From: Marsupella aquatica
Taxonomy: Eukaryota; Plantae; Marchantiophyta
Direction of reading: 5' to 3'
DNA: 64,000 nt
Assembly: GCA_973895155.1 (NCBI GenBank)
Contig: OZ316891.1
Location: forward strand, 31,627,112-31,691,111
This document shows, one piece after another, positions 5,281 to 47,999 of this stretch. The first letter of the stretch is position 1. Each line of letters opens with the position of its first letter. The notes under the pieces are model-generated. The model was not told the DNA's origin, did not search any database, and saw only the letters and a program-made list of their open reading frames with translations. Both the position numbers and the translations under genes were made by a program.

Positions 5281-5340
5281 AGGACTTAGTGGGCTTAGTC
5301 CTATAAGGTATGGTCTAAATGGCCCCGGTTTCTACTAGTG
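5281..5340. mobile_element. Right terminus of a CACTA (EnSpm) DNA transposon; its body probably occupies 1-5340 and its other end lies outside the window
   Basis: Sequence ends ...TTTCTACTAGTG (reverse complement CACTAGTAGAAA) exactly where homology to 60601-60682 stops. There is a subterminal palindrome AGGACTTAGTGGGCTTAGTCCT. The next 3 bases (ATT) would be the 3-bp TSD, but its partner is not seen. Confidence 0.6.
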
Positions 5341-5663
5341 ATTGAACCCCTGATTGAGCATAAATCTCAATTTGCCAATCCGCCATCCCCTAGTCTACTC
5401 CCTCCCACTAACCCTACACATGCATCACATACACACACAACAAACTACTTTTAATAAACAATAGTCAATTATATATCACAATTTACTCACACTTTGAATG
5501 TATGTAGTCAAAGCCTGCAAGTCACTTGCATCTAGTACATACACTCTGTCAACTATCCCAGACTTCATTGTCAAGTTCACATTTGAAATTACCATTTCAA
5601 TATCAATTGTCCATCTGTTGCATCATAAGTGAACAAAGTTTTGTTGTTACCAGTAGATTTGTA

Positions 5664-8600
5664 TCAATTACACTGCAAGCGACACACACTTCCACTCTGT
5701 CCAATTGCAGGCACAGGCCTGTCCAACAAATCTATTGCTTTCCAACGTCTGACCCAATGGGAGCCATTCTTCTGTATCATAAACTCAATCCTCCCCAACC
5801 AATATTCCTTCTTTGCAGATGTTGCGTCAACAACAGGCCCTTTATCTATTCCCTTCCTCTTCTTTGACTTGGATGATCTGGTAGAAGGACCAACCTCTGC
5901 AGCAGACTCAAACAAAACTGCTATATCAGTACCAATGTCAACCAAACAAGTCATAGAGTCACCATTTTCCTTCTCCTTACCAGTAGTGTAATAGGTCTTG
6001 TGGGCTATCCTAGTTAGCCTATCCTTTGACATGAAAGGATTGCAGCACAATTGACTCACAAGAGTGGACTTGTAGGTAGTCCTTCCCTCATAAGTTATAG
6101 TAGACACTACTGACCGGGGTGTCTGCACATCAGTTAAGTCTGCTTGAACTCCATTAAAATGCCTTACTTCATGTCCTAGTGTCTCCATTTCACAAAATGG
6201 GTTAGTGTCCACCTCAATCAAACAATCATCAACTGTTAGTGGCTCAATACAATCCTGACTGTCTAGAGTGTTGATCCCATGAATCAATCCGATTGAGATC
6301 TTCTTCAGGATCTTCAAAATCTAGAAACTCTCCAATTGGGGGCTCAGGTCTAGGGCCTACAGTAGATCGATGTTCAACTGTGTCTTCAGCGTCATCACAT
6401 AACACAACCTCTTTCATGACACTTGTATCCGGCCAAGTCTCTGCCTCCACCTCCCAAGGATGAACCCACCATCGTCTTTTCGCTGCTAGCAAAGAACTCC
6501 TTGGTGACATGTTCAACTTGCACAACAAATCCTTTGCTTCCTGCAAACCTTCCTTTAGAGCATCAACAACCAGCTCATTAGTCTAAACTGTAGAGTAATC
6601 AAATAAATTTGGAGCTTGTTCTCCTTCATCCAGAGGATGTAAAGTTGCCCAAACATGATACTGTTTATCATGTGATGGACGTATCTTCAATCCCTCTGGT
6701 CCATACTCTAATCCAGCTAGTCAATTTAGTCCCACTGCACTGTCCAGTAGAGATCCAAAGTCATAATTTCTCTCATGGCCACTCATGCCACCTACCTTGC
6801 TGAAAAATATCTCACAACAATCTGATCCCAGCAAGTGAAATGGAACTTGCAAATATGGGAACTTGTCCCGAAAGGCACAGAGTAACAATACTACAAAATG
6901 ACAAGACATGTTGATATCATGGAAAGCCTGCACAGAAATCATGTTCTTCTCTGTGATAGATCCAGCATTCCCTATCACAGAATGATCACCATACCTCAAC
7001 CATAGCCTCCACAATCGGAAGAACCAAGATACCTTTGATGCCAAGACAACACGGGTTCTTAGGTCATGCTTAACAGAGAAGAAAATATCCATGTAGTCTG
7101 CACAAACCTCCAAGTATATCATGGTCCCAAAGCTTCTGTCATGACGAACATCTCGTCGCTCATACATATGCTGCAGGCAGGCCTCCACTCTCCTGGAAGC
7201 TATTCATTGTGGGCCAGCCTAGTTTTGTCTATCTGTCCTATTCACATCATCCCAATGCAAACCATGCTCATGAATTGCATAATGGTTATAAACAAATGTG
7301 ACATATGACAAAGATGCATGCTGATCACCAAGAACTAACATAGCAGACACTCGGTCCAATGGGTTAATTGCCTTCTTGCCATTGTGAGGTGGGTCTTGAT
7401 CTCCAAAACCATATAGATCTCCATTCGGAAGTATGGACACTGAGTATTGCCACCCAACCCATCCTACACTGTACCTAGGAAAGGAACCATTCACAGCAGT
7501 ATAATCTTCCATCATCAATTTCCTACGACGGGCATCACCATCACTAGCATGGCCCAACAAAGGACCAACACTGTCTCTGCAATGTGTGTCCCACATGGAC
7601 TTCAGCTGCACGCAATGCTCTCTTACCCAGGGAGCTCTAAACTTGTTACATGTTGGTAGAACACACAATGCCAATTTAGGCATCTTTGCATGCAGAGGAT
7701 TGACAATGATTACTCTAGCATACATGCCTTTGGTATACTGCTCAAAAGTACTTACAATCTTGTCATACCCTTCAGTACCTGCTCCAACCAGTACTTCCAA
7801 GCCAAAAGAACATGTGTGCTCCTCTAAGGGGCCACAGAAACCAATGAGGGTGTCATATTTAGCTTCCCATCTATCACACACAATACAAAACACACATCAG
7901 CTCATGACGTGCAAACTCATCCAACACATTCAAAAGAACAAGCTAATTTACTAGAGACAAAAACACAAACCTGGGTCTCTCTTTTATCCTTGTTTCATCC
8001 TCAGCAAACATTACTGGTACATCTCCTGAAATTCCAAGTGACTGCTTTGATGCACATAGTACTCTGCACACCTCCTGGAATATCTCTTTTTGAATGCCAG
8101 CTCTAAAGGGTGGTAGTTTTGCTCTATCACATTTCAAGGTCTTCAGACCTGGACCACCTAGGTTTGCCTGGAAACAATGAGCCACTTGTCTACCTTGGGA
8201 AAAGGCCTTGGTTCTCTTACTGTATCGATAACCCTTAGCAACTCTCTGCAAGTTCTTAGCTAAATCTGTCAGGAAATCCCACAACCCTTCCTTGCCACCA
8301 AAAGCACCACGCCTATGTCCATTCACAATATTTCTCAGAAACAGTCTTAAATCTTTCCTATCATGGGCTACTCCTAATAAATCTTCTAGCTTCTTTCGCC
8401 TAACACTCAAGGCACAAATTTTCTGAGCCTGTTGTGCCAACAGCCAACGCTGTTTCCTAAAGCGAGTGTTGAGGTTACCAGTTACATGTTCCCTCAGTTT
8501 GGTTTTGGTCAAGTATGCCAACCTCATCCCACCCTGTGTAATCCTGTCTCCTCTCTGCACTAATGCTTCCGCTTCCCTGTGCACCTTGCCACAAAAATCA

Positions 8601-9878
8601 TTCATGTTTTATAGAATCACATAGAGTGCAAGTGAGGTGTTGAAAACCACCTCCATTAATGGACACCCTGTGACATTGCTTGTGCCTAAAACAACCCTGT
8701 ATACCAACAACTGACTGGCTAGTTACATTGAAAACCTCAGCATAGGTGGTACGGTCATAGTCCCAGACATTCCCTCCCTCTTGATCATCAAGTATGCCCT
8801 TCACATCCATAGAATCCCCTGTCCACTTGACCTCTGACTCCCACAAGCCCCAACAAAGCAAACTTAAACTTGGCTCAACGGAGGAATACAACCCACCTCT
8901 GCCTGAACTGCTCCTTGCAGCAGAGCTGTCCTCTCTAAAGAAATTCAGAATAGAATTTTGAGATGGAAACAGATCACGAGCATCAGGCTTCCTTGGTCTC
9001 CCCTTCTTCCCTGCCCTCAGTGCAGCCTGGGTATTGGTGACGACATTCTCAAGTGCATCCATATGATCCCGACTGACAAGGTGTTGCCTTAAATTGTGTT
9101 CCAAATTGGATTTCTTATGGCACATGTTAGTATGTAGCTTGCCATAGACTGTACATCTAACCTTAAACAGGAATGACCTCTGTGCAAATGTTGGATCAGT
9201 GGGAGATGGTGTGATAGAGAACACTTCTACCACCCCACCTACCTCTGCATTCAACTTTTGCACTATTTCCACACCAGCCCCTATTTGCATACTATGATCA
9301 AACAATGGTTGCTGTATAGTGTCAGCAGCCGTCACCAAAGCTCCAGCTAAACCCCTTCGCTTACACCAGTTCTCCTTGTGTTTAGGGTTGGTCAGGTGCT
9401 TTGTCTTGAAGTTGCTAAAGCAATTTGCGATGGACTTGAGCACCTGTGAAGTGGCTGCATTCCCATAAGTCTCCCTACACTCTAAGCATTCTAGATGACC
9501 TCGACACTCCCCTCCCTCATGCCATGTTTGCACTTTCCACTGGTGCTCACCAAAGCCCTTCTGGTTCACCCAGGATCGTAGCTTCAACCACTCATCATTC
9601 CAGGCCTTTGATGCAGCCTCAGACATGAGGTGAGACTCAAAGGAGCCTGTGACAGGCTGTACAATAGCCTGTACTGGCACCCCTTGTGTTTGTCCTTGAG
9701 ACAATGGAGTCGTGCCTGCCACATTGGACACAGTGGCAGTAGATGAATGAGAGGAACCAATAGTGACCCTCTCAGTAGGCAAGGCAACTGAGGGTAACTC
9801 TGCAATCACGTAAATTGTCCCTTGAAGTTCAGTCACCCCAATAGTCTTCTCTGAAAAGCGCCGGACTCGACCAGGCAA
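5664..9878 (-). pseudogene. P-element/THAP9-like DDE transposase, disrupted (copy 1)
   Basis: Ordered motifs are FAEDETRIK (D1), GHASDGD (D2), DQDPPHNGKK (DxxH), DRQN and GSDCCEIFFS (E). N-terminal CxxC...H...H zinc-finger-like motifs are present. There is a GT-AG intron between ..KERPR and WEAKYD.., plus several stops and frameshifts. Confidence 0.75.
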
Positions 9879-11176
9879 CCTCTCATCCCAAAAATCGAAG
9901 TCAAACTCTACTGCACCAACACATTTCAGACGAAAATCTGCCAGAGTCTGCCTTCTTTGAAGGACATGACACAGATTGGCGTATCAGGCTTTCCTCCCTC
10001 CTCACCCTTTTCTACCAATCTGACAGAGCTCATGCCTAGGTGTGCCATGATGGACAGTTATACAGGCTGTGAAAGTAAGGGATAGGGATTAGGTACATGA
10101 ACCTGTCATACAACAATGGACAGACATAGAAAAAGATCAGGACTCAAGTCAACCATTCACAATGTCATTTGAACACTCAATAGACTATTGTAGTCAATGA
10201 AACTTACTTGAGTCCATTTCAGTTCATCAACCTTCCATTTCATTCAACCAAATACTTAAGTCCATTTCATTCATCAAAAAACTCAAGTCCATAGCATTCA
10301 ACCAAATACTTAAGTATAATTTACACAAGGGATTACACAAGGTGAGCATTGGACTGCGGGGCCTGCCATCGACTGATCGCTGGGAGGTTGAGGTCTGAGC
10401 TACTGGCTAGGTCTAGATTGTGCTTGGCCCCGTTACGCTTTGGGGCCTCCGAACATTCACAGGTGAACTCTGATGCGATGGTCTAAGTTGGAAGCGCAAA
10501 TTGTTTATTAGCTACCTCGGATGTAAACTGGAGGCTTACGGAATCGTGGAGCGTTTTGTGGGGTACTACACCAGGATCACAGGGGAGTACGCTCTGTGCC
10601 CCACTAGGATCGTGGTGGAGCACTCCATCTCTGTCCTAGATGGTTCAAGATAATTTCTACAAAGCAAAGCGAGATGGTACGGTGACACTCTGAAGTGGAA
10701 TTTGCCATGCTCCCATTGACTGTCTCTTGAGGGCGTAGTATTGGAAGGCTTGAATCTGCCGCTGCCGGTTACTCGGGACTTCTTTTGACGACACGACGTT
10801 GGATGCGGGGCCGCTGCGGTGCAACTAGCTGAAGGTGCATTGGACTCCTCTGCTAGCTAAATGCCTGCACGATCAAGCCTTGCTGAACGCCGGATGAACT
10901 TCAACCCTTTGCTCGAAGATTATTGAGCTGGGGGCCTGGGGAACCTCGGATTATCTAGCTAGGATAAGATTGAACTGCAACGACATTAAGTATTTGCAAC
11001 AATACTTATCAACGCACTTGGATAAGGAGCAATACGTGCCCAAGGTCGGCTGTGTTCGAAGAAGGGCTGGATAGACACACTTGAATGACACCCACACAAC
11101 AATCCAAACAAGGTGAGACCGAGATCCAAGCTCACATTCTTTTGCATCGCTGCTCTTTGCTTCGGGTGGACTCACC

Positions 11177-13243
11177 ATGGAGTATGGCAGAACGGGTGGA
11201 TGGGAGGGTGAGAATTCCTCCCGTGCTGCTGGCTATCATGGGGCTCGACCTTATCAAGAGTTCCAGGGGCAGGATTTCTATGGACATGAGCAATTCAGTA
11301 GACAGGATTCTTGGAGTTCGCCACTTCGCGGAGGTGGACGTGGACGTGGACCTTTCTCTGCTAGGTCGGGGCGCCCCCCGTTCGTTGCTCAGCCAACTTA
11401 CGATCTCTTTGCGGATCAGTCAGGAGGATACAACTCCACCAAGGATCTGTAGCGTGCACACCCTGCGGAGGGAATTGAGAACAAGGAAAATGCACAGCCA
11501 ACCACGTCTAGCACCCCCAGGGATGCTGAAATGCCTCATGCTCCCCAAAGGACTCCGGTGGCATAGGACACAATGCTTGGCCATACTCCGACTCATGTTC
11601 AGGAGAAGTCTGCCACTTGGAAGAATGCTGCTTTCGGATCAGGGATAGAACCGGCTGTTGTTACCGAGGATTGCATTAACATACTAAAAGAGATTGGAGA
11701 AGTCACAAAGGGTGACTGGCACCAGAAACTCTTTACTACAGTGGAATGGCCATTGGAAGAAGCAGCCAACAATGTTCGACAATTGTACAATTGTGCTCTA
11801 CTTTGTTATTTCACTGATAGACCTCCGATGCTTCCCACTTTTCGAGCTTGGATAGATGAGCAAATGGTATGTGGGCGAGGCTGGCCGGTGCTGCAGGTCA
11901 AATTTGTTGGTAAGAACTTTTACCTGGTAGTCTTTGCGAGTGCTGATCATCGGGATCTTGCTCTGTCTGCTGCTCCATGGTTCATTGAACGCAAACTAAT
12001 CTTTACATTCCCATGGGACCCCACATTTGATATTCGAACAGAGAAATATACCAAACTACCAGTCTGGATTGAGCTTCCTTTTCGGGCACTGGTGTTGGAA
12101 GGGTGCCGGATTAAGATCGCGGAATCACTGGGCAAGCTGCTGCACTACATCCAGGGGGATGAATACAGCTCATACCCGCATGACAGAGCTTGTATCCTTT
12201 GGGATACGGAACGGGAGGTTCCTTTCAGCGCTCGTGTGAGGATCCGAGAGGATATTATCATCTGGCAACCTATTCAATTCAAGAATATACCATTTCACTG
12301 CTTTAAATGTAATAAGAAGGGACACTTAGCTAGAGAATGCAGAGATGGCTTCGAAGAGGCGGCCAACACGTCTGCTGAGCACATTGAAGGGGAGGAGGAC
12401 GCTCACACACCTGAGGAACTTGATGGGGTGGCTGAAGGGGACCCCGATGAGGTACTGAGGACACAATTGGCGTCGAATCTGCGCGCCAGGGGCAGAGACA
12501 AGCATTTGCCTTGCGCTGGCGGCCCATCGGTGGCAACTGACCTCAACACGGTGGAGTCCTTATTGGAACACATTGAGGATGTGCCTGAAGTGATACCGAT
12601 TCTAACTAGTGGCATTCCACGGGAACGTGTGGCTCTTGCGGGAGGAATTTCCATCCCTCAGAAAGATTTGATCACCCTGCCCACTAAAGAACAAGGGAAC
12701 CTGATATCCTCGCCTGCCCCGACAGTTACTAAGCTTTTGGCCGACGCAAGTATCTTTGTTCCGTCTGGAGATGTCAGCTCGCCTCTGATAGCACCTGGAA
12801 CCTTGGTTGTGCACTCACAGAATGTAGACCCCGAGGCGTTTTCATATCACGGAGATTCTGATGTGGACTTAGAGATGTCCGAATACGAGGAGTATGTCTC
12901 TGGTAAAGGGAAAGAGAGAGTTCGGAAGTTGGATACTCGGACGCCGCCTCCTGCAAAGAAGGACAGGAGCACTCAGGACTCTAAAAAGCAACGTTCCTTA
13001 CATTTCTCACCCACAATTGTGTCGGATGCAGGGACAGGAATGGATGGAGAGGATAGCAGAATGGAGGCTGAGCGGTCCCCTGGATGGAGGGCCGTCCCCT
13101 CTGGTGGCCAGCTCCCACTCTTGACAGGCCTGAATGATACAATGATGGAGGATACTATTGTGGATACTCCGCGTCACCGTCAAGGCCTTATCACTGCTAG
13201 GGATGGCAATGGCTCCTCCCCGGGTGGACGTGCACACATTTGA
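11177..13243 (+). pseudogene. LINE ORF1p (RGG-rich N-terminus, DUF4283-like domain, CCHC zinc knuckle); one in-frame stop at 11450-11452
   Basis: APWF..W.P.F...PVWIELP pattern and CFKCNKKGHLAREC knuckle. ORFs 11177-11452 and 11573-13243 are in the same frame. Confidence 0.85.
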
Positions 13244-13284
13244 GGATTGGCACTCTGCTCTGGTAGCGGAAAGGGGGTCGAAGT

Positions 13285-16200
13285 ATGACATGCCTACTTC
13301 GGATTGCTTCCTGGAATGTATGCGGATTGTGTGAACCTAATAGGAAAATGGTAGTCAGGAACTGGATTGAATCCTGTAGAGAGAAGATAGATATTCTAGC
13401 GTTACAAGAAATAAAAGCAGATCAATTTCGGCTGGATATTGCTCTGAGGGCTATACTGCCGCTGTATCAGCACCTCACTTCTGCACCAGATGAGGGTCGG
13501 GGTGGGTCTGCTCTGCTGATTCACCCTGATCTGAAGATATTGGCAACGGGCATGATTGACCTGGGAAGGGCCGTATGGGCCGTGATAGAATCGGAAGGAG
13601 GCAAATTTGGAATGGTTAGCATCTATGCTCCGAACTCGCCTCGACTACGGGCTTGCTTATGGCACGAGCTGAAATCACTCCTTCCTCAAGGCAATTGGAT
13701 TCTTGGTGGGGATTTTAACATGACAGAACTTAGAGAAGATTCGAGTGGGCTATCACCTTTGCTTAAGGGCCGGGAAGCCGAGTTTTGGCGTTTTTTGAAA
13801 GTCCGGCTGGATCTGGCGGATGCACTGCTGATTAAAGAGGTTACTGGCTCCCGTTTTACCTGGCGCAGATGCAGAAACGAGGTAACTGTGCAGTCACGTC
13901 TGGATCGATTTTACTTCAGTGAAAAAGGGGAATGGCTGGGGGACCTATTGGAACTGATACATGATGGGGGGTCAGCACTTTCTGACCACGATCCTGTAGT
14001 GATCATAATTCGACTGGGAGACAGGGAGGACATCGGTTGTCCCCCGGGTGGGCCGGTGTGGTTTAAAGTGAACCCGGCTGTGGTCAGAAACAAAGATCAT
14101 CTGGAGGCATTGGAAGGAGCCTGGAAGCTGGGGAAGGGCAACTGCACTGAGCCACTGTTGGCTTTTGAACGAGCTTCCTGCCATTTGCGCAAGATGTACC
14201 GTTTAAAATAGGGCTCCCCTAAAGCACGAGCGGAAGAGATGAACCTCTTGCGGACTCGGCTTCGAACTCTGAAAGAGTCCCTGCTAGAGGACAACTCGGA
14301 GGAGGATATGAGAGAATATATAATTGCTGAGGATCTCCTGCATGCTGCGGAGATGGAAGAGGCACATGTTGGGAGACGACTAGCAAGGATAAAATGGCTA
14401 GGAGAAGGTGAAGAGCCCACTAAATTTTATTTTGCTACGGTAGCAGCAAAGCGAAGCAGGGAAGCTATGAGATCTCTTACCATTGCAGACGGAGCAGAGA
14501 TTACTGAACCTGCTCACATTCTGAGGGAAGTCGCCAGACAATGTTTAGATCTGTATGCCCCCCCTGATCTGACTACAGGTGAGCTTGGGGAGATGAGGAA
14601 GGCCAGGAGCTCTCTCCTCGCTCACACTAGACACCTTAACCTCCGCTGAACTGACAAGATTAGAAGTGCTCCCCAATGGTAAAGAAATCAAAGATACTCT
14701 CTGGCAAATGCCATCTGATAAGGCCCCTGGCCCTGATGGAATGACAGCAGAGGTTTATCGGGCTTGTTGGCACTTTATTGAGACGGATCTCATTGCCATG
14801 ATACAGGTGTTTTGGTTGTCTGGCAACTTAGCTGCTGGCATTAACGATGGTATCATTAAGTTTATCCCCAAGAAACTAGATAAGAGGCTTCTGAAGGACT
14901 GGAGACCCCTGACCATGCTGAACACCATTTACAAGCTCATTGCCAAAATACTGGCCAATCGGTTGATGGTTATCCTTCCCAAGCTGATTAACCCACAGCA
15001 GACAGGATTCATTCCTGGCAGGAACATTTTGGAAAATATCTCACTGGCCTGGTTAGCTTGTGACTGGACCAAAAACAAGCACAGGGAATCCTTGTTTCTC
15101 AAATTAGACTTTGAAAAAGCATTTGATAGAGTCAATCATGAGTACATTTGGGAGACAATGCACCTGCTAGGGATTGGCAGCCATTTCATCAAGCTAGTAC
15201 AGGCTTTGCTTGCTGAACCGTCGTCACGTGTGCAGGTCAATGGCTTGATGTCTGAGACCATTGGGCTAAAGAGAGGTGTAAGACAAGGCTGCCCGCTTTC
15301 CCCTCTGCTATTTGTTATATCGACCCAGCCCCTTATGGATCTCATGGATGCGGAATTAGCGGCTGGGAGACTACTAGGGATACAAATATCAGAGGAATTG
15401 ACCCTCTGTTATCGACTCTTTGCGGATGACTTGGGAATGCTGATCCCTGCTACAGAGGAGTGCTTCCACATGGCCACAATGGTGCTACACTGTTACGAAT
15501 CTGCAACTGGAGCAAGACTCAATTTACGCAAGTCTGTGATCATACCATTGGCAATGGCTTCTATACCATGGTGGTTGACGAATACAGGGTGTGTAATCAG
15601 CAAGAAAGGGGAGCTACAAAAGTATCTGGGTGCACCATTGGGGGTGGAGCTGCAGAAGGATCATTTACATCGCTTTGTTCTTGATAAAATTGGTGCACGC
15701 TTGTCATCTTGGGCCAACAAGCTGCTGTCATTCTCTGGAAGGATCCTCTTGATCAGGCACATCTTACAGGCGATACCCATTTATCATTCTATGTTCTTGA
15801 AAGCCTCTGACGGCCTGGCAAGGAAATTGATAGCACTATGTCGGGATTTTCTGTGGGGCTACAACTCTGAAGGAGGCAAAAGGGTACCTCTGGTCTCTTG
15901 GGCTAGAATGGCTAGGCCTAGGATGGATGGGGGCCTGGGGCTGAAAGACTTTTGTTGCCACTCGGACGCTCTTCTCTCTAAATGGTTTACGAGAGCACTG
16001 GACTCCCCTGGCACGGAATGGGCCTGCCTCTTTGCAGAAAATTTGAAATTGGTTAGCTGGATGAATTTCAAGTGGATCAGGAGGAATAAGTATTCTTTCA
16101 GGGATAAAATGTTGCTTTGCTTTCCACGATCATTTAATGGCCTTACATATACTGGAGGATTATGGAAAGCTTGGATGCAATTAAGACCTCATCTGATCTT

Positions 16201-17200
16201 TTCCCCAATGGATTTAATGCTTGGCAGGTGGAATGTAATGGATACACTACGTTGCCTTGAGGGCTTTCAGTCGTGGCCTAATGCGGATTTTACGGCGGTA
16301 ACAGTGCTCTGTGGACGCTTGGGCATACGCAGTATCCGAGATCTTTGGTCAGTTGAGTTGCAAACGTGGCGTGATTTGGTTGCACAACTGGCACACATTA
16401 GAGGGTTCTCTGCACGTGAGCGAGGCTGTTGCAGGGAGTTTCTAGAGAAGGTTACAGAGATTGATGGATGTTGTATGCACTATGTCACTGGAGCTCGATG
16501 TTGGCGATGGGCGGATCATCCGGCCCCTATGAATGCCTTTCAAATTACCAACAGGCGGGCTTACTCTCTACTTAGCCCTACTGTGGAGGATTTTCTTAGC
16601 CTGAATTGCACTTGGGGCAGCACAAAATCGGTAGGTGAATGGAAGGCGACCTGGATTGGGCTGTGGAGATCCGATCTATCCTCACGGGCAAAAACTTTTG
16701 TCTGGAGAGTCCTAGAGTCCGGATTATTTACAGGAATCCGTGCTGCCCGCATAGGCAAGGGAGATGGATTTTGCAAGCTGTGTAGCGGTGTCACTGAAAC
16801 CATGCCCCACCTCTTTTCCCAGTGTGTGCATGCCCGCAAATGTTGGGCATTAAGTGCTAGGTGCTTCCAAGGCACCTTTCCTGATTACTCGAGTAGGATG
16901 TTATCCATGCTAGATCTAACACTAGGTAGAGAACACAGAACAGTTGCAAATCTATTCATTTTTTACCAGATCCTATGGTCATTGTGGTTAGGATGGAATG
17001 TACATGAGTTTCAGGCAAATGGCTGCAAGAAATTTGATCTTAGATTCCTATTATCGGAGGCAGCCGATCATGTTACTGCGGTGGGCTTGAGCTTGCCCCT
17101 GGGCAGGCGGCGCACAAGAATGATGCGTGTTAAAGAGCTTATTAATCAGGAGAGAGTGGTGTGGTTGCGTAGTCGTCAGGTTTGGATCACGTTTGGCTGA
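13285..17200 (+). pseudogene. LINE ORF2p (APE endonuclease, reverse transcriptase, zf-RVT); stop at 14209-14211 and frameshift near 14650
   Basis: SWNVCGL, GGDFN, SRLDRF, SDHDP; KAPGPDG, KLDFEKAFD, GVRQGCPLSPLLF, LFADD; C-terminal CKLC...ETMPHLFSQC. Confidence 0.95.
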
Positions 17201-17445
17201 GGTCTTTTTGGATCTCAGGGACGGAGTATATTGTCGTCTTGGTTTCTGGCTGATGGCTCGGGCATTTGTGTGCAGCGCATAGCTGGTTAGTTTGCCTTGC
17301 TCTGTATTGGCCCTTGGAGGGCTCGGGTACAGGAGAGCTGTGTATAGCTGGTTAGTTTGCCTTGATAGATATTGGCCCCCTAAATTCTGGGCGTGCATGA
17401 TATGCTTGGCTTGCTGTTGGCCCCCACTGTTGATTTGGGGCAAAC

Positions 17446-21443: not shown

Positions 21444-21599
21444 CAAACACAATCTGCGTCCCCCTGCCACGGGGTCTTTCGTGGTTATAGTAATAAAAGA
21501 AAACAAACTTCAAGGAAGTATAATTTAGGTTGTCTTATGGGTCCACTACAAAAAGGGTTCAAGTTGTAAGATGGTGGAATTAGTAGCAGTCATGCTGGT

Positions 21600-22235
21600 C
21601 TAGTCATGGGTACTTGGGATATCAGAACCCTCTCGGATGACATGGCGAGTACAGTAAATCATGCGCCACTGTCCAATGTCCCAGGTGTCTCGGCCCCTCA
21701 CCCTTCTCCTCAAGTGCCTGTCTGCTGTTGGTCCTTCATCACGACACCATGCACGAGGGCATCTACGACATTGGAAAAAATCCCAAATGCCCTCCCGATA
21801 CTCCTTACAGACCTCACAGTAATGTCGTGGGCATATAAGAGCATCGGGATGTGCATCAGGGTTATCTGGATGGCGGGTGAAAGGCATTTCCCCCAATCGC
21901 AGAAGTGTCCGGAGACAACCCACATGGTAAAATGAGTAGCAGTCATCATGAGAACACTGGATCACAAGGGGCTCATATGTGGTGGGTCTCAAGGTTCTGC
22001 CAAGGAGTCCACAACCAAAACATCTTCCTTTGTTTTGCTGATAGATGTCACAAAGCCAAGCTGCAGCCCAATCATGACCTCTGGAAATGACAATCCGCTG
22101 ACATGTAGGTCCATGGCCATCTTCCTCATCAGGGTTGTGGCCATCAACTACATAATGAAAATGGCGACCACAAGGGCCATCACAAAACAAAATAGTTCCT
22201 CCCTCATCACATTCAAAACAGCAAGGGGGATCCAT
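21600..22235 (-). CDS. EDM2-type composite PHD-finger protein (exon or possibly degenerate gene) carried inside the P-like element
   Basis: CFECDEGGTILFCDGPCGRHFH..C..WLCD..RCFGCG..IQCSHDDCYSFYHVGC..ICPRHYCEVC..QCRRCPRAW..RMIYCTRH follows the Cys/His order of the plant EDM2 PHD cluster. One expected Cys appears replaced (CDIY). Confidence 0.75.
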   Translation of the reverse strand: MDPPCCFECDEGGTILFCDGPCGRHFHYVVDGHNPDEEDGHGPTCQRIVISRGHDWAAAWLCDIYQQNKGRCFGCGLLGRTLRPTTYEPLVIQCSHDDCYSFYHVGCLRTLLRLGEMPFTRHPDNPDAHPDALICPRHYCEVCKEYREGIWDFFQCRRCPRAWCRDEGPTADRHLRRRVRGRDTWDIGQWRMIYCTRHVIREGSDIPSTHD

Positions 22236-22475
22236 ACGAAGGTGCTCCTATGCCCAAATCTTGGATCCAGCAACTGACGAGCAATGTGTGCCATGCTGAA
22301 CAAGATCTGCAAAATTACCTTCAAAAATTAGGGGCAGGCATAGGGGCAGGCATGTGATATACCAGAAGGAGCGATAGTCCACCAGCAATCATAGCCAATA
22401 GGCACCACCAGGGGCATGACTTCCTTGTGGGCTCCTTGGATCCATCCTGCAATGTGAGCAATGCAGAATCAGAAG

Positions 22476-23018
22476 TTAACAACTTGAGTGTGCATCACCA
22501 TCATGGGCAGAACCTGGACGTGTCCCACCACAGACACAATCATTGATGAAATGATAGGTGTTCCACGCCAGGCAACCACCCCATGACATTCTTGCCATGT
22601 ACTGTGAAAAAGTCTGCACTATGTTAGAGTCGAGGTTAGAGTCACCTCCCCTACAACGATCACATGTCTGGGTGTGACAATGGAGACAAGCCTCCAAGAA
22701 GACATGGTCCTCATCCAGCACCACATCTGTTTGTTCAACTAGACGGATACTGTTTGGGGCTGGTGGGGATGTACTTAGCCTCCGGTAATGGTTGCGAGGC
22801 ACAGATGGATAGCCCCAGGTCACAGCACAGTCTGTAGGCACGATCCCATAATGGATCATCTTCACACAAAAGCACTCACCCTTCTGTCGATGGTACTCAG
22901 ACAATACACTGCGTGTGACAACCATCTTCAGTGCACTAGACAGAGATTGTGCCCACTCCAACAAAATGACAAGGCCACAACAAGGTATCACGATTGACCT
23001 TAGCAAGGGCCTGAACAC
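22476..23018 (-). other. Cys/His-rich ORF, possibly an upstream exon or a second cargo gene
   Basis: CFC..H, CLHCHTQTCDRC and CVC motifs; same strand as and directly upstream of the PHD ORF. Confidence 0.3.
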
Positions 23019-23685
23019 AACCTCCCCAATTCCTGACTTCTACCAATTGATCCCTGCAAGAAAGAAAGGGAGTTGAAGTTATATTTCATGCATACAAGTA
23101 TCAAACAAACATACAAAGTAGATAGTGTCCAAAAACAGACAGACTCCTATATGCAAACATTCGCATCAGACAAGCAGGTCTTTATTATGTAAACTGCACC
23201 AAACACAGGGATACACTTGGAAAACGTAACCAGTCCTATATACACCTGCGTTTTGGTATGATCAAGTTTACACTTTGCCAAAGGGCATTTGCCTCATCCT
23301 GTTAATCATTTCTAGTTTCCTCTAGTGGAATGGCTTGTCTACGACTCATGGTACACTAAACCATAAACTATAAGAAACTGTCTGCTGCTCTGCAACAAAG
23401 TGAAGCTTACTTGAATCCTCCAAACAGATGCCTAGAATTGCTGCTCTGTGATAATTCAACACAAAACCCCTACACAAGTCCCACACACAACAAAAAGCTC
23501 AATAGAACATCAATAGTCTCAACACACACCAAAAGCTTAGTACAGTGAAAGTGAATGAGGACCGCAAATTCTCTCACTGTGACACTCTTTATAGTCTCAC
23601 CAGAAATGCTTTGAAAAACAAAAATGCCAGGTTAAATAAACTGCGCAGGTTAAAAAAACCAGGTTCTCTATCACATTGACAAACA

Positions 23686-26600
23686 TGTTTCATTCAATGT
23701 ATTCACCAACAATGATCACGCTTCTCTTAGGAGTGTAAGAATATATGGGTTACATTGATGGGCAGTTATGTAACTGCCCTAACTCCTAATTGTCACTTAG
23801 AGTGTAATCTACATCTTATAACACTCCCCCTTGGTTCTTTGAAGTGATTAGAAAAAGAACCACTCTATGGAGATTGTAACTCTAAGTGTTAATTATTTGA
23901 TCCTTATAAGTAGTATGGCCTCATTAAAACTTTCCCGCTTTCTTCTGAAAGAAAGAGTGCCACTACTGTACAAGTAATAAGGTCATCGAAATACATTTAG
24001 GGTAATCTAATGAGAACTTTATAGTGAAAGTTTCGTGCAGTTTCGAGAGTTTTAGTTCTAGCTGTGAGTTTGTAGTAGAGTAGATAGACGACGCATCCCA
24101 ATACCATGTGTGTGATCGTGGTGAACTGAAGGTGGGAGGGGCTTAGTGAAGAGATCTGCGCGATTATCTTTACTTGCAATCCAATGAACTTGAATCTGAT
24201 CGCCATGCTGTTCGTGAGTGTAGAAAAATTTGGGGGCAATATGCTTTATCCGATCTCCTTTGATAAAGCCTTGTGTAACTTGATCGACGCAAGGGCAATT
24301 GTCCTCGTAGATAGTTGTTGGAGCGTTGAGAAGTGGACGACCTGTATGCTGATTAATGTGATCAATTAGTTGCCTGAGCCAGATGCATTCACGACTTGCT
24401 TCGTAAAGGGCAATGATTTCTGCATGGTTCGAGGACGTTGTCGTGAGGGTTTGTTTGGAGCTTCGCCAAGATATCGCGGTGCTGCCTTGGAGAAATACAT
24501 ACCCGGTTTGCGATTTAGCATCATCCGGGTCCGAAAGGTATCCAGCATCAGCAAATCCGATGAGTTCAGAAGGAGCATCGTTGGGAAAGAACAATCCCAA
24601 GTCAAGTGTGCCCTGTATGTATCGAAAAATTCGCTTTACGCCATTCCAGTGTCTTATTGTTGGTTGTGAACTATGACGAGCAAGAAGGTTAACAGCGAAT
24701 GAAATGCCAGGGCGTGTGTGATTCGCTAAGTACATGAGCGCACCAATTGCTGAAAGATAGGGTTTTTCTGCTCCAAGTATCTGCTCTGTTTCTGTGCGTT
24801 TCTTGAATGTATCTCGATTCGGGTCCAGAGATCTCAGTTCCATTGGAGTGCTCACTGGATGAGCTTTATCCATGTTGAACTGCTTTACAATCTTTCTTGC
24901 ATAAGTTGCTTGATTAATAAGTATGCCGCCCTGCACATAGTCAAATTGAAGTCCAAGACAGTACTTGGGTTCTCCTAGATCTCGCATTTGAAATGTTGTT
25001 TTCAATGTTGCCATTGTTTCTTTAACTATTGTAGGTGTACCGAAGATGTTAATATCGTCTACATAAATAGCGACGATTATGTAATCTGTGTCATGTTGTT
25101 TAAGAAAAAGACAGGGAGCAATGTCGTTATTGACGAAGTTCAGAGCTAGCATCTCTGCCTTAAATCTTTTATACCAGGTTCGGCCACTTTGTTTGAGCCC
25201 ATATAGGGATCGCAGTACTTGGACTGCCAATTGTTTTGTCTGTATAGCAGATCTGGGAAGTCGACTTCTCGCTTGATGTGCACTCGGCACCTGTAATTCA
25301 TGAAGAACTGAAGGTTCGTTTTCATGTGCATGCTTTAGAAGGTACTCTATAGGAGTTTTCCTTGTTAACCCTGATTGTAGATCAGGGTTTGTATTATGTT
25401 TATTCTCCCCCTGAATTCGAAATGTCATTCGTGTGATTAACTCAGGAGGAGCCTTCATGTAGATTGTAGTGTCCAATATGCCATAAAGGTAGGCTGTGAT
25501 AACATCTAGTATGTTTAGTGTCAATTTGTGCGTAAGTGCAAACGCTATCATGTATCTATAAGTTATCGAATCCATCACGGGTGAGTAAGTAAGGTCAAAG
25601 TCACGTCCTGGGATTTGCGTATAGCCTTTAGCAACCAGTCGTGCTTTGTACCGAATTATTTCTCCTTGAGCGTTTCTTTTCCGTGTGAAAATGAATTTAT
25701 ATCCGATAAGTGATGTGTGTAGAGGGGCAGGAATGACCGGACCAAAGACTTCTCGTTGAATTAATGAGTCCAATTCAGAATTAAGTGCTATCTCCCACTG
25801 GGGCCAATCAGGCCGCTGTTGTGCCTCGTTGACTGACAGGGGATCTGGGGTGTCATTGGTGATATCCTGAGATATATCGAATGCAAATATATCATCTATA
25901 ATTGTATCCTTTCGATGCCATAATCGACCAGTATGCATATAATTGATGGATATTTCTTGATTTTCTTCTGGCTGAGTGAGAGAGTGGGTAGATGGTACCG
26001 GTGGAGGTGGCACATTCGTTGGGTTAGCTGGTGGTCGTCGTTGGCGAGGTTGGCTGTCTCTAGAGCCCAGTGGACGACCTCATTTTGCTCTTGGGGTAGC
26101 TTCAGTGGCAAGTTGGTCTGGTATTAGTATTCGGGCTGGAGCATTGGCCGCCTCTGTGTGTGAACGGGTTACTTCAGTTGCATCATTAAAAGCATCCGGT
26201 AGCTTTTCCAGCATCTGATGGAGATGTAATATGCGTCTGACTTCTGCATCAGCTTGTCTGGTACGTGGATCAAGTCCCACCGGTAGGATGGTCTGCCATT
26301 GTAATAATTGTTTTCTGCCATTCTCATCGGATGGATGTGTAGTTAGTTTCGGAAATTCGTCTTCGAAAAAGGTACAGTCAAGGAATCTGGCCTTGAACAC
26401 ATCTGTTGTGGATGGTTCCAGGAACCGAATAATGGAGGGCGAGTCAAAACCAACATAAATCCCTCGTTGGCGCTGGGGGCCCATCTTGGTGCGTTTTGGG
26501 CCTAGGATAGGGATAAGGACTAAACACCCAAACGTCCGCAAGTGAGAAATGTTAGGTGGTATACCAAATGCAAGGTAATGCGGAGTATGGGTATTAAATG

Positions 26601-29034
26601 CGGAAGGTCTATATTTTAGGAGAGCAGCTGCATGCAATATTGCATGTCCCCATGCTGTAGGAGGAAGCTGTGTTTGCATGAGGAGTGGCCGAGCTATCAT
26701 TTGTAGTCTTTTAATGAGAGATTCTGCTATGCCATTCTGAAAATGAACGTGCGGTACTGAATATTGGGTTTCTATGTCGGCAGTCTCACAAAAATCATCG
26801 AATGTTCTCGACGTGAACTCCCCGGCATTATCAACCCTGAGTGTCTTTATTGGATTGTCAGGGAACTGTAGCTTTAACTTGAGGATGTGTGATAAAATCT
26901 GTGGGAATACTAGGTTCCGGGTCGAGATTAGTGAAACTTGGGACCATTTTGATGAAGCATCAATAATGGCCAAGTAAAACCGGAATGGACCAAATGGCGG
27001 GTCAATCGGGCCACATACGTCAGCGTGAAGCCTTTCGAGGAATTTAGGAATGGAGTGAATTGTTTTAGATGTGGCTGGTCTGGTGATTAACTTTCCCTGT
27101 GAACACGCAAGACAGGGGCTCTTCAGAGATGATGGGCGCACCCCCTGGGGTATGCCTATCGTATCCCGGATTATATTATGGTACATGTTGGTACCAGGGT
27201 GGCCTAGCCAATTGTGCCAGCGCTCTGTGGGAGTTGGAGGAACTATTTCTACATGTAATGCGTGTATGGTGGTGATGTATAACCCGGGAGGGTGGATAGG
27301 CAAGGTTTCACAGATTTTCATTCCAGGTGGAGAATGGTCAATAATGTGTAGGACTTCACCCTCATTGGTCTTGCTTGTATATATGTGAAAGTTGTTAGCT
27401 CTTATGTCTCGGAAACTAATTAAATTTTGTGTGGCTTTAGGTGCGTATATTGCCGAGGTGATGTTGATTACTGTGCCCTGGGGGAAACAAACTGATGCGG
27501 GGCCGTGCCCTTCCTCAATATGATTATGTCCTGTGATGGTAGTTATGGCTCTGTGAGAAGCTATAATTGTTCGAAAAAAATGTCGATTTCTTAGGATGGA
27601 GTGGGAGGTCCCACTATCTACTATGCAATTAGATGGTGTTAATTTGCCTTGTGATTGTGCATCCATATGAGCAACGTGGGTTTCTGGAAGGGGTGTATCA
27701 TGTGTATAAGCATGTATGTCTTCAAGAATTTCCATAAAATTGCCTTGTGCATCTTCTGTTTGCCTGTTTATACTTTCTTTATAGAGCTTGACCAAGTGTG
27801 CAGGAGCCCGACATTCTTTTTGTAAATGTCCTTTTGTACCGCATCGGAAACAAGAGGGTGTAATAAACTTATCTCTTGGTTGTGCTTGGTAGCCTCTTCC
27901 TCGATTCCGTCCGCCACCTCCGCGTTGATTCCAAGTGGGGTCTTGCTGGAATTCTTGGGATTGTTGTCGGAAGCTCCCACTGCCTCTGTATCCTTGGTAA
28001 GTTCCTCTTCCAAATGCACGTCCTCGGCTCCCCCTGAAGTTGCCACGTCCGCGCCCCCGGAATCTTGAGGCCATAAGATGAGTTTCTGGTCTGGCTGGAG
28101 GGGCTGCACTCCCTGGTGGTCTTGTTTTAGCATTGTTGAGCAGTATTATCTAATGCTTCTCAGCGAGGAGCATATGTGATATCAATTGAGAATACCGCGT
28201 GAAATTCATGTTTCGATATTGAGAGGCTAGAACTATGTTAGTTACATGAAAAGTGGACAGAGTCTTTTTGATCTGCTCTTCATTATCCACTGGATTACCG
28301 CAGATAGCTAATTGGGAGGTAATTCGGAACAGTTCGCTGTTATAACTTGCAATTGTGCTGTAATCTTGTACTCGCAGGTTTATCCAATCGTGGCGGGCTG
28401 TCGGGAGTGATATGGTCCGCATATGATCGAAGCGTAATTGTAGTTCGTCCCATAGGACCCTTGGGTTGTAGTGATTGAGATATTGAGTCTTAAGCGGTTC
28501 AGCGAGATGGTGCCTGATTAGTATCAAGGCCTGAGCCTTCTGTTGTAATGTAGTACCTGCATCGGTTAAGGTTGTATCTTGCAGGTCTTTAGATGCTAGA
28601 TGTGCCTCCACATCTAAAGACCAAGACAACTAATTTGCGCCATCGATCACGAGAGCTTTGAAATGTAATTTCTCCATGATTGATCAATGCTGCAATTGGA
28701 AGTTCCGATGCTGGCTAGCTTGTAATAAGGTTCTTTGATAATGCAATTGTTTATGGCTAAGGAGATGATTTCTCTCACCGAGTTCCAAGAATCAGTTCCA
28801 ATCGAGGAATAGTGCTGCTGAAGTTTAACTGCGCGTCATCTGCCTCTATCTAAAAAAAATAAAATTTGTCACACACATCAGCTCGTGCTGATAACGTGTT
28901 TCATTCAATGTATTCACCAACAATGATCACGCTTCTCTTAGGAGTGTAAGAATATATGGGTTACATTGATGGGCAGTTATGTAACTGCCCTAACTCCTAA
29001 TTGTCACTTAGAGTGTAATCTACATCTTATAACA
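23686..29034 (-). mobile_element. Ty1/copia LTR retrotransposon (Bianca-like), Copia-1
   Basis: 138-bp LTRs at 23686-23823 and 28897-29034, identical by eye, TG..CA. TSD AAACA at 23681-23685 and 29035-29039. PBS at 28881-28896; PPT at 23824-23831. Confidence 0.97.
24058..28677 (-). pseudogene. Copia gag-pol (gag, CCHC, protease, integrase, RT, RNase H) with three in-frame stops
   Basis: All ORF pieces are in one frame. CFRCGTKGHLQKEC, IVDSGTSH, HADVCGP, RVDNAGEF, YKARLVAKG, SLYGLKQSG, YVDD, GFADA, ADLFTKPL. Confidence 0.95.
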
Positions 29035-29727
29035 AAACAAACTTTCTTTTATACTCCGAGGTCTGTTTGTCTACTATTAGTTTTCTGCTAACATGTTCCA
29101 ACTCTGATAGTAGACCCCCCCTGAGAGACTATCAGTTTTTTGCTAACTATGTGCATTCTGCTAAGCCAAGCTGCAAGTAAACATAGTTAGCAAAATTTCA
29201 TTCACTTTATAACCCACAAAAAGAGTTTCTATATGAATAGCAATGTTCTTACCTTCACAGCACAGTCAGTGCAGGATTGGATTGGATCTGATTTGGATGG
29301 CGAGCCCCGAGCACCGATCACAACAAAGATCAAGCACCGATCACCAACCAAGCAACACTCACCAAGAAAGCACCGATCACCAAGAACCACCGAGCAATGG
29401 GACCAAATAGAATGTCTCTTGCTGAGTTCACCCTAAATGGACAATCTTGCCAATGCGAATGGGGATCAGATGTGCAACGTACTTTTTAGAAGCTTCTACA
29501 ACTAAACCAGACAACAACAGACATCCAGCCAGCATCGTCCTTCGGACCTCTTCAATGAAAGGAAAGACCACGTCGCAAGCAGAGAGGAAATGCTAGCAAA
29601 AAATAGCAACATCAATGTGCGACAACATTTGCAAGAGGAGCGACCTCCAAGGGGCCATAGAAGCTAGGAGTATCACCTTCTTTCCGCCAATCCAAGCTCT
29701 ATAGAGTAGTGTCTAAAACCAAGTAGC

Positions 29728-30155
29728 AGCCGACCTCCACACGCCTCCACAGTCTACCTACTCTCCAAACTTGCACAGTAACAGTCCTTCCGGCCTCCGA
29801 ACTTGCGGCAATAGCAGTCCTCCCGACCTCCTCAAAGAGAATGGACGGACCTCTAAAACTGTGGTAGCAGCAGTCCTCCCGGCCTCCATAGTTGACTACA
29901 GCTCCAGCTTGCAGCAGCGCACAGCAATCAACCTTTGATTTCTCACAAAGAAATTGGAGAGCCTCTGAACTCGTGCCAACAACAGTCCTCCCGACCTCCT
30001 CAGTCAACTAGAGCTCCAATGTCGTGGCAGCGCTACACAACACAACAATATATCCTCTGATTCCCACAAAGAAGATGGAGCTCCAAACGCACCAACAATG
30101 CAGCTCCCGGCCTCCACAGTCGACTACAGCTCCAAGGTTGGCAGCGCTACACATC
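29728..30155. repeat. Degenerate short repeats (CAGTCCTCCCG(A/G)CCTCC-like) in the left subterminal region of the P-like element
   Basis: Motif recurs near 29783, 29815, 29871, 29983 and 30101. Confidence 0.55.
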
Positions 30156-30715
30156 AATCCTCTCGTCTCTCACAAAGAAAACATTGAGTTTGAAACTCAA
30201 TGTTCACGAATCCTCCTGAGTTTGTCGACCACCCCTGGGCCCATTCCCGCTTGAGCTTCCATCCCCGTCCCTGCAGCCGCCACCCGACCCTTATTTGGCC
30301 GTTGGATCTAAAACCCTAGACATCAACGGCCCTTGAAAACCCCGACTGGATGTCACGGGTCCCCCTACCCGCTTTAGACCCCACCCCCAATAAACTATTT
30401 TTTAGACTGAAGTTTGGTTAGAGTTGGGCATAAATTTAAACATGCATATTGTGGCAAATATGAATATTTACGACCTTACAAAACACGTGTCCCTGTTACA
30501 ATGAGACATGTGTACCAGTACATACATGACGCGTGTCGCATATAATATTTGTACCAATTACCCTTACTTTGTTGGACACCTTCCGTGGAATGTGTTTCAT
30601 TTTAAAAATGCCTATTGTTCTTTAAAGCAGCCCAACAATTAAAACGGGCCCTATTGTTCTTCCATGAAACTTTGGAAGTCTTCCGTCGAACCCAATTAAA
30701 TGGCCCTATACTTCG

Positions 30716-30757
30716 TCGCACGTGATGTGGGACTTCCGCGGAAGTGACCCCCCCGAG
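30716..30757 (-). repeat. Left bipartite terminal repeat of the P-like element
   Basis: TCGCACGTGATGT-N14-AGTGACCCCCCCGAG, matching 61174-61216. Confidence 0.85.
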
Positions 30758-32359: not shown

Positions 32360-32379
32360 AATACAATCAATTGGTTGTC

Positions 32380-32787: not shown

Positions 32788-32789
32788 TT

Positions 32790-41925: not shown

Positions 41926-42074
41926 CAAAAGGAAGAAGGTTTTTCTCTGGGTGCTGTAAACTGAATAATATAGAAAATTGTCTTATGTGCAGCAACCTAA
42001 ATCAGGGCAGAAAACAAGAGCCACTACTGTGAACTAGTTGTAGAGATGGGTTTCCTACCTTGTGATGTTCTTTT

Positions 42075-47945: not shown

Positions 47946-47999
47946 CTTTTGTCCTTTATTTGTTTGCCTTTGGTTGTCATTATGGTTTGTCACACTAGC

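Follow-up and report, generated by a model that had tools for sequence, protein, structure and literature searches.

A dead 9.4-kb transposon with a predicted P-type transposase fold in the liverwort Marsupella aquatica

We analyzed a window of 64,000 nucleotides from Marsupella aquatica (contig OZ316891.1), in which positions are counted from the first letter. The window very probably holds a dead 9.4-kb TIR transposon, which is predicted to have encoded a transposase of the P-type fold and likely entered a Harbinger Myb gene by P-type cut-and-paste with an 8-bp duplication. The evidence supports a divergent lineage of the P superfamily in liverworts, and probably in other bryophytes too.

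Results

A single insertion into a Harbinger Myb gene

Only two termini are present in the window, at 30757 and 61216. The left end (minus strand) reads CTC-G7-TCACT-N14-ACATCACGTGCGA and the right end (plus strand) reads, as the reverse complement, CTC-G8-TCACT-N14-ACATCACGTGCGA, in agreement with the bipartite termini, CTCG(G)6-7TCACT-N14 followed by an inner block, that a sequence-only reading of this DNA had described. A relaxed family terminus pattern matched twice in the window, against a mean of 0 in 200 mononucleotide shuffles. The 8-bp target site duplication (TSD) of that reading was also found: positions 30758-30765 (CTCTTGCC) are the reverse complement of 61217-61224 (GGCAAGAG), a pairing expected by chance at fixed positions with a probability of ~1.6e-5. 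The TSD is split, one half at each of the two termini. The Harbinger Myb reading frame resumes after 61224 and is restored in the empty insertion site, which is present in contigs of X5 (n = 2) and X1 (n = 1). Both window termini belong to a single insertion into the Harbinger Myb gene and, since the TSD halves flank different copies, this insertion was rearranged later.

Position 5341 had been taken for a boundary of the element; it is not a terminus, and copy 1 ends 534 bp before the right end. Copy 2 (33536-61216) lacks the left ~4.1 kb. With the insertions removed, the element is ~9,390 bp long, as the earlier reconstruction of ~9.4 kb had it. The two copies form an inverted duplicate of 4.8 kb in which they are 98.2% identical (87 differences in 4,818 aligned bases) and have six lesions in common, so that both copies are dead. 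The common TSD and the six common lesions led us to reject two independent insertions of healthy elements.

After the element died, a local inversion or fold-back would have copied the 4.8 kb in the opposite orientation and flipped the left end along with the adjoining flank, and LINEs, copia elements and others would have inserted after this rearrangement. A less probable but substantial alternative is that the dead copy hopped locally, in trans, to give two separate inverted insertions, that ectopic recombination swapped their TSDs, and that a later deletion took the left end of copy 2. The 12 bases beside the copy 1 break (5329-5340), which we take to be a CACTA-type end, would suggest that the right end of copy 1 may lie beyond the window; no match to a CACTA transposase was found among the ORFs of 1-5340. 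P is known to hop locally (PMC7776569), and TSD exchange at inversion breakpoints is documented for the P-family elements BuT5 and Galileo (PMC3698922). However, the second route requires the extra deletion, whereas a single fold-back or staggered-break event takes fewer steps. The six shared lesions are compatible with both routes. Table 1 lists the features of the window.

Table 1. Features of the window, with positions counted from its first letter
Feature	Positions	Strand	Remarks
Copy 1 break	5329..5341	.	Adjoining 12 bases are CACTAGTAGAAA
Transposase exon 2, copy 1	5476..7870	-	Several stops and frameshifts
Single 100-nt GT-AG intron	7871..7970	-	L001 and L002 have one ORF across this position
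Transposase exon 1, copy 1	7971..10048	-	Frameshifts near 9953 and 8603
Nested plant L1-type LINE	10324..21515	+	TSD AAGTATAATTTA
4-kb TG..CA element inside the L1-type LINE	17446-21444		TSD CAAAC
PHD-finger frame inside the element	21600..23054	-	Upstream part decayed, exon model uncertain
Nested copia retrotransposon	23687..29034	-	TSD AAACA; LTR blocks differ at 1/142 bases
Left non-coding arm, short tandem repeats	29035..30715	-	Contigs from 4/4 runs cover most bins
Left terminus, inner block ACATCACGTGCGA	30716..30728	-	Family core CACGTGCG
Left terminus, outer 15-bp block CTCGGGGGGGTCACT	30743..30757	-	Identical in L002
TSD half 1, GGCAAGAG in element orientation	30758..30765	-	
Host Harbinger, left part (Myb gene, inverted)	30766..32355	-	Myb_DNA-bind_4 E 6e-9
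Gypsy fragment adjoining copy 2 start	32344..33535	-	RT_RNaseH E 3.5e-33
Copy 2 body	33536..60682	+	Inverted duplicate of 5341-10166
Insertions in copy 2 body	34243-49309; about 51834-59027		TIR element; LINE
Right arm and right terminus	60683..61216	+	Inner block 61174-61186, outer block 61201-61216
TSD half 2, GGCAAGAG	61217..61224	+	Empty site in X5 and X1 contigs
Host Harbinger, right part	61225..62517	.	Myb gene end (+), DDE_Tnp_4 transposase (-)

The transposase gene and a second frame

The transposase gene had been read as multi-exon; it has only two exons and one intron of 100 nt, and the remaining breaks are frameshifts or stops. Because these breaks are read through in intact relatives, we discarded a gene model with several introns. 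Exon 1 is predicted to encode a ubiquitin-like fold, two C2H2-type fingers, a Cys-rich domain, a coiled coil, a helix-turn-helix (HTH) and the first Asp (EDET), and exon 2 the RNase H core with SDGD, DxxH, an insertion domain, DxxE and the C-terminal domains. All five motifs are present in copy 1 in the order first reported: EDETRIK (8002), SDGD (7545), DPPHNGKK (7395), DRQN and SDCCEIFFS (6825). No Pfam family was assigned to the transposase exons, and a phmmer search of PDB sequences with P0001 alone found no transposase.

Besides the transposase recognized earlier, the element contains another frame, not mentioned before, that encodes PHD fingers of the NSD type. This frame is open for 215 codons (22247-21600) with a PHD_NSD match (Pfam PF22908, E 4.7e-8), and the Atlas linked it at 0.91 to streptophyte NSD-like PHD clusters, with a recognition of 2270, below the 2300 mark. 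Its fingers may resemble those of plant EDM2. Since the frame was found in 0 of 306 retrieved proteins and 0 of 17 loci, it may be private to the subfamily of the window element. Homologs among longer proteins were likewise not found (0 of 246 candidates), nor was any relative in the PDB. The frame is likely captured cargo, which may read chromatin.

Relationship to the P superfamily

The core of L002, an intact metagenomic relative that is 49% identical to the window protein over the core, was modeled by AlphaFold with a pLDDT of 92.9. In the VIA search with this model, the Drosophila P transposase (6p5a) was the top match with a Z of 24.5 (rmsd 3.6, 412 residues), the next match reaching 8.7; RAG1, Transib, Hermes and the MULE-like ISCth4 had Z values of 7.8-8.5. 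Foldseek also placed the P transposase at the top (E 1.1e-10), with RAG1 next (1e-3). The hAT-type fold was not the best match (Hermes, Z 7.9, Foldseek E 4e-3). Residues 37-541 of the predicted model align collinearly with 6p5a 137-569 at 11-13% identity, over 412 of 442 residues and with the insertion domain included, and the all-helical P-type insertion domain between beta5 and alpha4 is matched. The HTH motif GPR..LPS..T aligned with P, and long helices (coiled coil) precede the core in both models. The fold was predicted for L002, not for the broken protein of the window.

The family profile reached 6p5a at E 0.049, with AEDET aligned with FDEM/D230, and the Atlas linked the exon to clusters that have PF21787/PF21788 on 15-25% of their members. 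The P relationship first proposed from motifs is therefore supported by both structure searches, the family profile and the Atlas links; the comparison with the Drosophila enzyme suggested at that time, carried out on the L002 model, gave P and no non-P superfamily as the top match.

Conservation was counted over ungapped rows of a 137-row family alignment, in model numbering. The D-D-E residues are D142 (108/108), D261 (125/127) and E503 (124/125), of which D142 was aligned with P D230 by profile, and D261 and E503 were assigned from where their motifs fall in the structural match. The second Asp is followed by C/DxxH, with D308 in 122/125 rows (C in 3) and H311 in 125/125. Among the equivalents of GTP contacts, as mapped by a weak HMM domain (-1.0 bits), S409 is S in 49/122 rows and D444 is D/E in 72/120, and K385, K400, V401, F443 and N447 are mostly G, N, W, I/V/L and L/F/Y. 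The D528 equivalent, mapped by spacing, is D in 116/125 rows.

Pfam models of P or THAP matched 0 of 31 family proteins at E 0.01, and the window exon had no Pfam THAP match at E 1, consistent with the earlier remark that no THAP domain is obvious. Residues 1-84 of the N-terminal model matched ubiquitin-like folds (Z about 7). THAP structures were absent from the N-terminal fold searches, in which the ubiquitin-like domain filled the lists and other parts were barely covered.

A separate status, as a sister superfamily of P or within the poorly defined Novosib group, with the P fold but not the GTP-dependent chemistry, is unlikely for the family. The low identity to 6p5a, the absence of Pfam P matches, the five mostly changed GTP contacts (K385 to N447), the CYC instead of CA ends and the different N-terminal domains would suit such a group, but the collinear match that includes the insertion domain lies far above those to RAG1, Transib, Hermes and ISCth4, the 8-bp TSD, DxxH and D528 equivalent are kept, and the Atlas neighbours bear P Pfam domains.

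Contigs, relatives and family ends

Contigs joining a terminus to unrelated flanks were present in 4 of 4 runs. The summed contig depth of the termini was 30 to 200x that of the neighbouring arm bin, a hint that gives no copy number. There are probably many short non-autonomous elements that have these ends. An assembly artefact that joined repeat copies is a very unlikely source of the inverted arrangement: although the region is dense in repeats and the sole contig across 33535/33536 reaches 30 bases beyond, one below the bridging rule, the copies differ by 1.8%, with different nested insertions that have their own TSDs, and a contig of X2 crosses the 30757 junction without differences (X1 and X2 are possibly from the source organism).

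The relatives range from Riccia and Calypogeia to 4,442 distant proteins. Identity is 52-58% for most of the top Riccia matches and 25-37% for more distant members. In a tree that took in family members only, the window protein clustered with proteins of Riccia sorocarpa (0.99) and with Calypogeia (0.98). With these more distant members, the lineage is probably not confined to plants. No account of the lineage was found by full-text searches of the literature, and to that extent it appears undescribed.

L002 is an intact element of 6.1 kb with a 29-bp TIR, an 8-bp TSD (GTTTTCAT) and a single 1,492-aa ORF. It shares the first 15 terminal bases of the window element and is thus another TSD-flanked element with these termini, as the sequence-only reading had anticipated. 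Bipartite ends were found in L001-L004, L006-L008 and L012, with the common pattern CYCGGGG..CACT-N17-19-CACGTGCG. The CT- termini reported earlier are CTC at both window ends; all family ends seen start with CTC, CCC or CTT, and none has the 5'-CA that is typical of animal P/THAP9 elements and also seen in zebrafish Pdre2. Matching TSDs were found in two of the four elements with both ends in view, the window element and L002, and not in the short-read contigs L001 and L008. Among metagenome contigs, 0 matched the exact terminus pattern, and 0 of 41 candidate relatives in viral contigs were confirmed. A domesticated host gene or non-mobile repeat, which the annotation of the Riccia and Calypogeia proteins as hypothetical only might suggest, is exceedingly improbable: the element has TIRs and a TSD, its empty site is seen, its termini occur beside many different flanks, and several lesions disable it.

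Discussion

In the proposed mechanism, a transposase dimer would use its HTH and catalytic core to hold the outer block of 15-16 bp at each end. Its N-terminal zinc fingers, in the role of THAP, would bind the inner CACGTGCG block, which lies about 33-41 bp inside the element. The D-D-E residues would do the cutting, possibly while the insertion domain holds a purine nucleotide, and the 3'-G ends would be joined to target strands 8 bp apart.

A wider proposal, nearly balanced and still tentative, is that the family represents an uncatalogued branch of P, invisible to Pfam, that has radiated in bryophytes, with CYCGGGG..CACT-N18-CACGTGCG ends, intact members, abundant MITEs, a ubiquitin-like and zinc-finger N-terminus replacing THAP, a remodelled nucleotide pocket whose GTP requirement is maybe lost, and chromatin-reader cargo that can be swapped (PHD, Tudor, SAP, C1, Ulp1). 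Table 1 of a 2022 review (PMC9033089) has six TIR superfamilies for land plants, P absent, and a screen of 1,007 plant genomes, in which P was looked for by Pfam profiles, reported recently active elements from seven other superfamilies (PMC12973397). The escape of the family from Pfam would explain why P is missing from plant surveys and why bryophyte annotations list these transposases as hypothetical genes. If the proposed branch is real, the land-plant list would gain one more superfamily, and the branch would offer a natural test of the reason for the GTP requirement of P. The window copy itself is dead, and what is of value is the family. With intact members such as L002 one can test whether all P-fold enzymes depend on GTP, how THAP is replaced outside animals, and whether inversions are driven in plants as by Galileo and BuT5 in flies.

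Comparison with known systems

Like the Drosophila melanogaster P transposase (6P5A/6PE2), the liverwort family has a coiled coil, an HTH, an RNase H fold interrupted by a helical insertion domain, helices at the C-terminus, D-D-E with DxxH, an 8-bp TSD, a 3'-terminal G, and an outer block with an inner site. Unlike P, its protein has ~1,490 aa (751 aa in P, 11-13% identity), a predicted ubiquitin-like fold and C2H2-type fingers with no THAP detected, and an extra C-terminal domain; its elements have CTC/CCC-G-run ends, are 6-9.4 kb long and reside in a plant host. The P superfamily requires GTP and cleaves its ends with a 17-nt stagger (PMC7776569). Most GTP-contact residues appear changed in the liverwort family, as mapped by the weak HMM domain.

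Like the liverwort family, vertebrate THAP9 and zebrafish Pdre2 combine a short TIR (13 bp) with an internal repeat apart from it and have an 8-bp TSD (PMC10983969). However, Pdre2 starts with CATAC, keeps THAP and the GTP contacts, and has distant internal repeats, whereas the liverwort inner block lies ~18 bp from the outer one. The repleta-group P element/BuT5 and Galileo also have split ends (a 3-bp TIR and a 16-17-bp sub-TIR) and a MITE partner, and sit at inversion breakpoints with exchanged TSDs (PMC3698922); unlike the liverwort family, they are insect elements that bear THAP and are 35% identical to D. melanogaster P.

A DDE fold with an insertion domain is common to hAT (Hermes), Transib/RAG1, MULE-like ISCth4, Kolobok and Novosib. 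C/DxxH is common to hAT, MuDR, Kolobok and Dada, and Kolobok is defined by TTAA TSDs and RR..YY ends (PMC9587614), whereas the liverwort family has 8-bp non-TTAA TSDs and CY..RG ends. Hermes, Transib/RAG1 and ISCth4 are set apart by structural Z values of 7.8-8.5, as opposed to 24.5 for P.

Termini and extent of the element

We analyzed the ends of the element in the window. Two termini were found, at 30757 (minus strand) and 61216 (plus strand). In both, 14 bases separate the outer block, CTC-G7/G8-TCACT, from ACATCACGTGCGA, as the sequence-only reading had proposed (CTCG(G)6-7TCACT-N14-ACATCACGTGCGA). A relaxed family terminus pattern matched twice in the window, compared with a mean of 0 in 200 shuffles. 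The 8-bp TSD GGCAAGAG was also recovered: the 8 bases just beyond the left terminus (30758-30765) match, when reverse-complemented, those that follow the right terminus (61217-61224), an agreement with a chance probability of about 1.6e-5. Subtracting the nested elements leaves a length of about 9,390 bp, in agreement with the ~9.4 kb estimated earlier. The spacer of the left terminus contains a perfect 14-bp palindrome (30730-30743), ACTTCCGCGGAAGT, which the right terminus lacks.

A single insertion, later rearranged

Self-comparison showed that 5341-10166 of copy 1, the left copy, is repeated in inverted orientation within 33536-60682 (copy 2), where it is broken into pieces by nested insertions. 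When the element and one TSD were taken out, a continuous reading frame was restored. The frame belongs to a Myb gene (Myb_DNA-bind_4, E 6e-9); with the DDE_Tnp_4 transposase that it faces, this gene marks the insertion site as a Harbinger element. The empty site was present in contigs of two sequencing runs (at least two in X5 and at least one in X1). The split TSD, the restored Myb frame and the empty-site contigs indicate that one insertion supplied both the left end now on copy 1 and the right end now on copy 2.

Across 4,818 aligned bases, the two copies show 87 differences. Both carry the same six lesions (frameshifts near 9953 and 8603 and within the final 60 codons, and stop codons near 7220, 7205 and 5664), and both lack a base at 33749 that is present in contigs of all four runs; therefore, the duplication arose from an already dead copy. 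Copy 2 may have originated by fold-back or a staggered break; alternatively, a local hop may have been followed by ectopic recombination and deletion. Copy 1 stops at 5341 against 12 bases that resemble a CACTA-type end, and its right end may therefore be located beyond the window. Among runs that may include the source organism, an identical X2 contig bridged the junction at 30757, and coverage across the junction at 33535 reached only 30 bases beyond it, in X1. In copy 2, a 45-bp tandem duplication of SDGDARRRKLMMEDY codons lies at the second catalytic Asp (51223-51323).

The nested elements comprise LINEs, copia elements and 4-kb TG..CA elements, two of each, and one TIR element. The TG..CA elements are 88% alike and look like giant solo LTRs carrying a gene. 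The ends of the TIR element resemble those of Sola or Kolobok. It codes for a protein with a coiled coil and a RING-like part (39380-41925), and no transposase was recognised in it. The LINEs carry DUF4283, in agreement with a land plant, and the end of each is an A-rich stretch plus TTC(C)AAGG(AA) instead of plain poly(A). Both copia insertions are young.

Elements nested within the P-like element
Feature	Position	Details
TG..CA element 1	17446-21444	5-bp TSD CAAAC; no RT; 877-aa ORF with coiled coil, no Pfam family above cut-off
TG..CA element 2	34845-38876	5-bp TSD CCATG; no RT
TIR element	34243-49309	27-bp GGTG..CACC ends; 4-bp TSD GAAT; ~5 kb without its own nested inserts
L1-type LINEs	10324-21515 and about 51834-59027	~72% alike in conserved parts; TSDs 12 and ~16 bp
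Copia 1	23687-29034	LTR blocks differ at 1/142 bases
Copia 2	42075-47949	LTR blocks differ at 1/201 bases; 1,575-aa open frame

Transposase gene and predicted fold

The transposase occupies the minus strand from 10048 down to 5476, some 1,490 codons, and is collinear with intact relatives along its full length. All the motifs named by the sequence-only reading were found in the stated order, but the multi-exon gene it described has a single 100-nt intron (7970-7871). An NSD-type PHD-finger frame lies upstream in the same direction (PF22908, E 4.7e-8; Atlas protein clusters, 0.91, a weak recognition). This frame did not turn up in 306 fetched proteins, in 17 loci or among 246 candidates; it is likely cargo and may read histone marks. 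In the insertion-free element, CpG observed/expected was 0.05-0.3 over the coding part, compared with 0.6-0.9 in the first 1.5 kb; the low values are a sign of long-term methylation of the genes.

We then modeled the core of the intact metagenomic relative L002 (residues 560-1200) with AlphaFold2 using 85 sequences (pLDDT 92.9, pTM 0.92). The proposed P relationship was supported: Foldseek ranked the Drosophila P transposase structures 6p5a (E 1.1e-10) and 6pe2 (E 1.5e-10) first, as the only two hits at E 0.001 or better, followed by RAG1 (E 1.2e-3). VIA comparison with 48,161 chains gave 6p5a at Z 24.5 (rmsd 3.6, 412 aligned, 13% identity), with the next at Z 8.7. A 137-row profile matched 6p5a at E 0.049 (rank 2 of 17; the top row was an acidic low-complexity match). 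The 6p5a alignment covers the HTH and pairs AEDET with FDEM/D230. D142, D261, H311 and E503 (model numbering) are nearly invariant in the family. When the eight GTP contacts given for P transposase in the available text of PMC7776569 were weakly mapped, the equivalent of D528 was kept, those of S409 and D444 were partly kept, and five mostly differed.

The N-terminal model (57 sequences, pLDDT 82) has a ubiquitin-like fold at 1-84 (a middling Z of ~7), followed by two C2H2-type motifs and a Cys-rich domain visible in the sequence, which bear out the zinc-finger-like motifs noted earlier. At E 0.01, the Pfam models for P and THAP matched none of 31 family proteins, consistent with the earlier remark that no THAP domain was obvious. 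Six of the 31 carry Tudor, C1, SAP, Ulp1, UCH or zinc finger domains, the last two below cut-off.

Relatives and dispersed copies

Of 4,326 candidates, 57 proteins matched a query made from the exon 2 protein with X at stops (P0001); those with a name all belong to Riccia sorocarpa or R. fluitans. Calypogeia fissa came in with a second search (31 of 3,992), and a profile search recovered 4,442 representatives with an E of 0.001 or lower, 150 of which were listed. In a FastTree phylogeny of 103 of 137 aligned rows (rows covering at least 80% of the core), the window protein joined three proteins of R. sorocarpa (0.99) and next Calypogeia (0.98), inside a 29-member clade (1.0) to which L002 also belongs. 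The host is thus probably a liverwort.

Relatives were encoded by 17 of 74 metagenomic candidates. L002 is complete (192-6287), with a 29-bp TIR, one ORF of 1,492 aa and the TSD GTTTTCAT; the first 15 bases of its TIR are identical to those of the window terminus, which makes it a second TSD-flanked element with this end. In L001, the ORF is intact and both ends are present (CCCGGGGGGAGCACT); no matching TSD was found at L001 or L008. Because the ends of L001-L004, L006-L008 and L012 all show CYCG-purine run-CACT, 17-19 free bases and a CACGTGCG-like block, the split end is a family trait. At L004:52 (minus strand), a family-type terminus directly at the start of the transposase match suggests that a relative inserted into that element. 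The 8.8-kb L001 element holds a second frame of 174 codons downstream of the transposase (7003-7524), matching no Pfam family, as possible cargo.

Contigs in all four runs showed the terminus running into unlike flanks: at least 6 in X1, at least 11 in X4 and X5 at 61212 with at least 4 nearby, and at least 2 in X6 (with an agreement of 0.51-0.63 wherever contigs were pooled).

Mechanism and classification

We conclude that this is a genuine transposon that probably works in the manner of a P element. TIRs, an 8-bp TSD, an empty site and dispersed copies are all shown, the catalytic triad is conserved, and the enzyme is predicted from the model to have the P fold. By analogy with the P transposase as described in PMC7776569, the HTH would contact the outer terminal block and the zinc fingers the inner block, and a staggered cut would leave a 3'-G as the transferred end.

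P families exist in green algae, so that a P element in the plant lineage is not unheard of. Titles and abstract openings yielded no paper on P elements in bryophytes; the supplements of bioRxiv 2021.09.26.461848 could hold plant P sequences. Table 1 of PMC9033089 gives Tc1-Mariner, hAT, Sola, MuDR, PIF-Harbinger and CACTA as the TIR superfamilies of land plants. According to the available text of PMC12973397, 1,007 plant genomes were screened with Pfam profiles including P, and seven other superfamilies were represented among the recently active clusters.

The predicted fold, the triad, DxxH and the TSD match those of the P superfamily. The animal P subgroup has a CA end and THAP, whereas the window element lacks the CA end and Pfam detected no THAP in its family. 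P relatives with split ends, MITEs and inversions, described in the accessible part of PMC3698922, provide a precedent.
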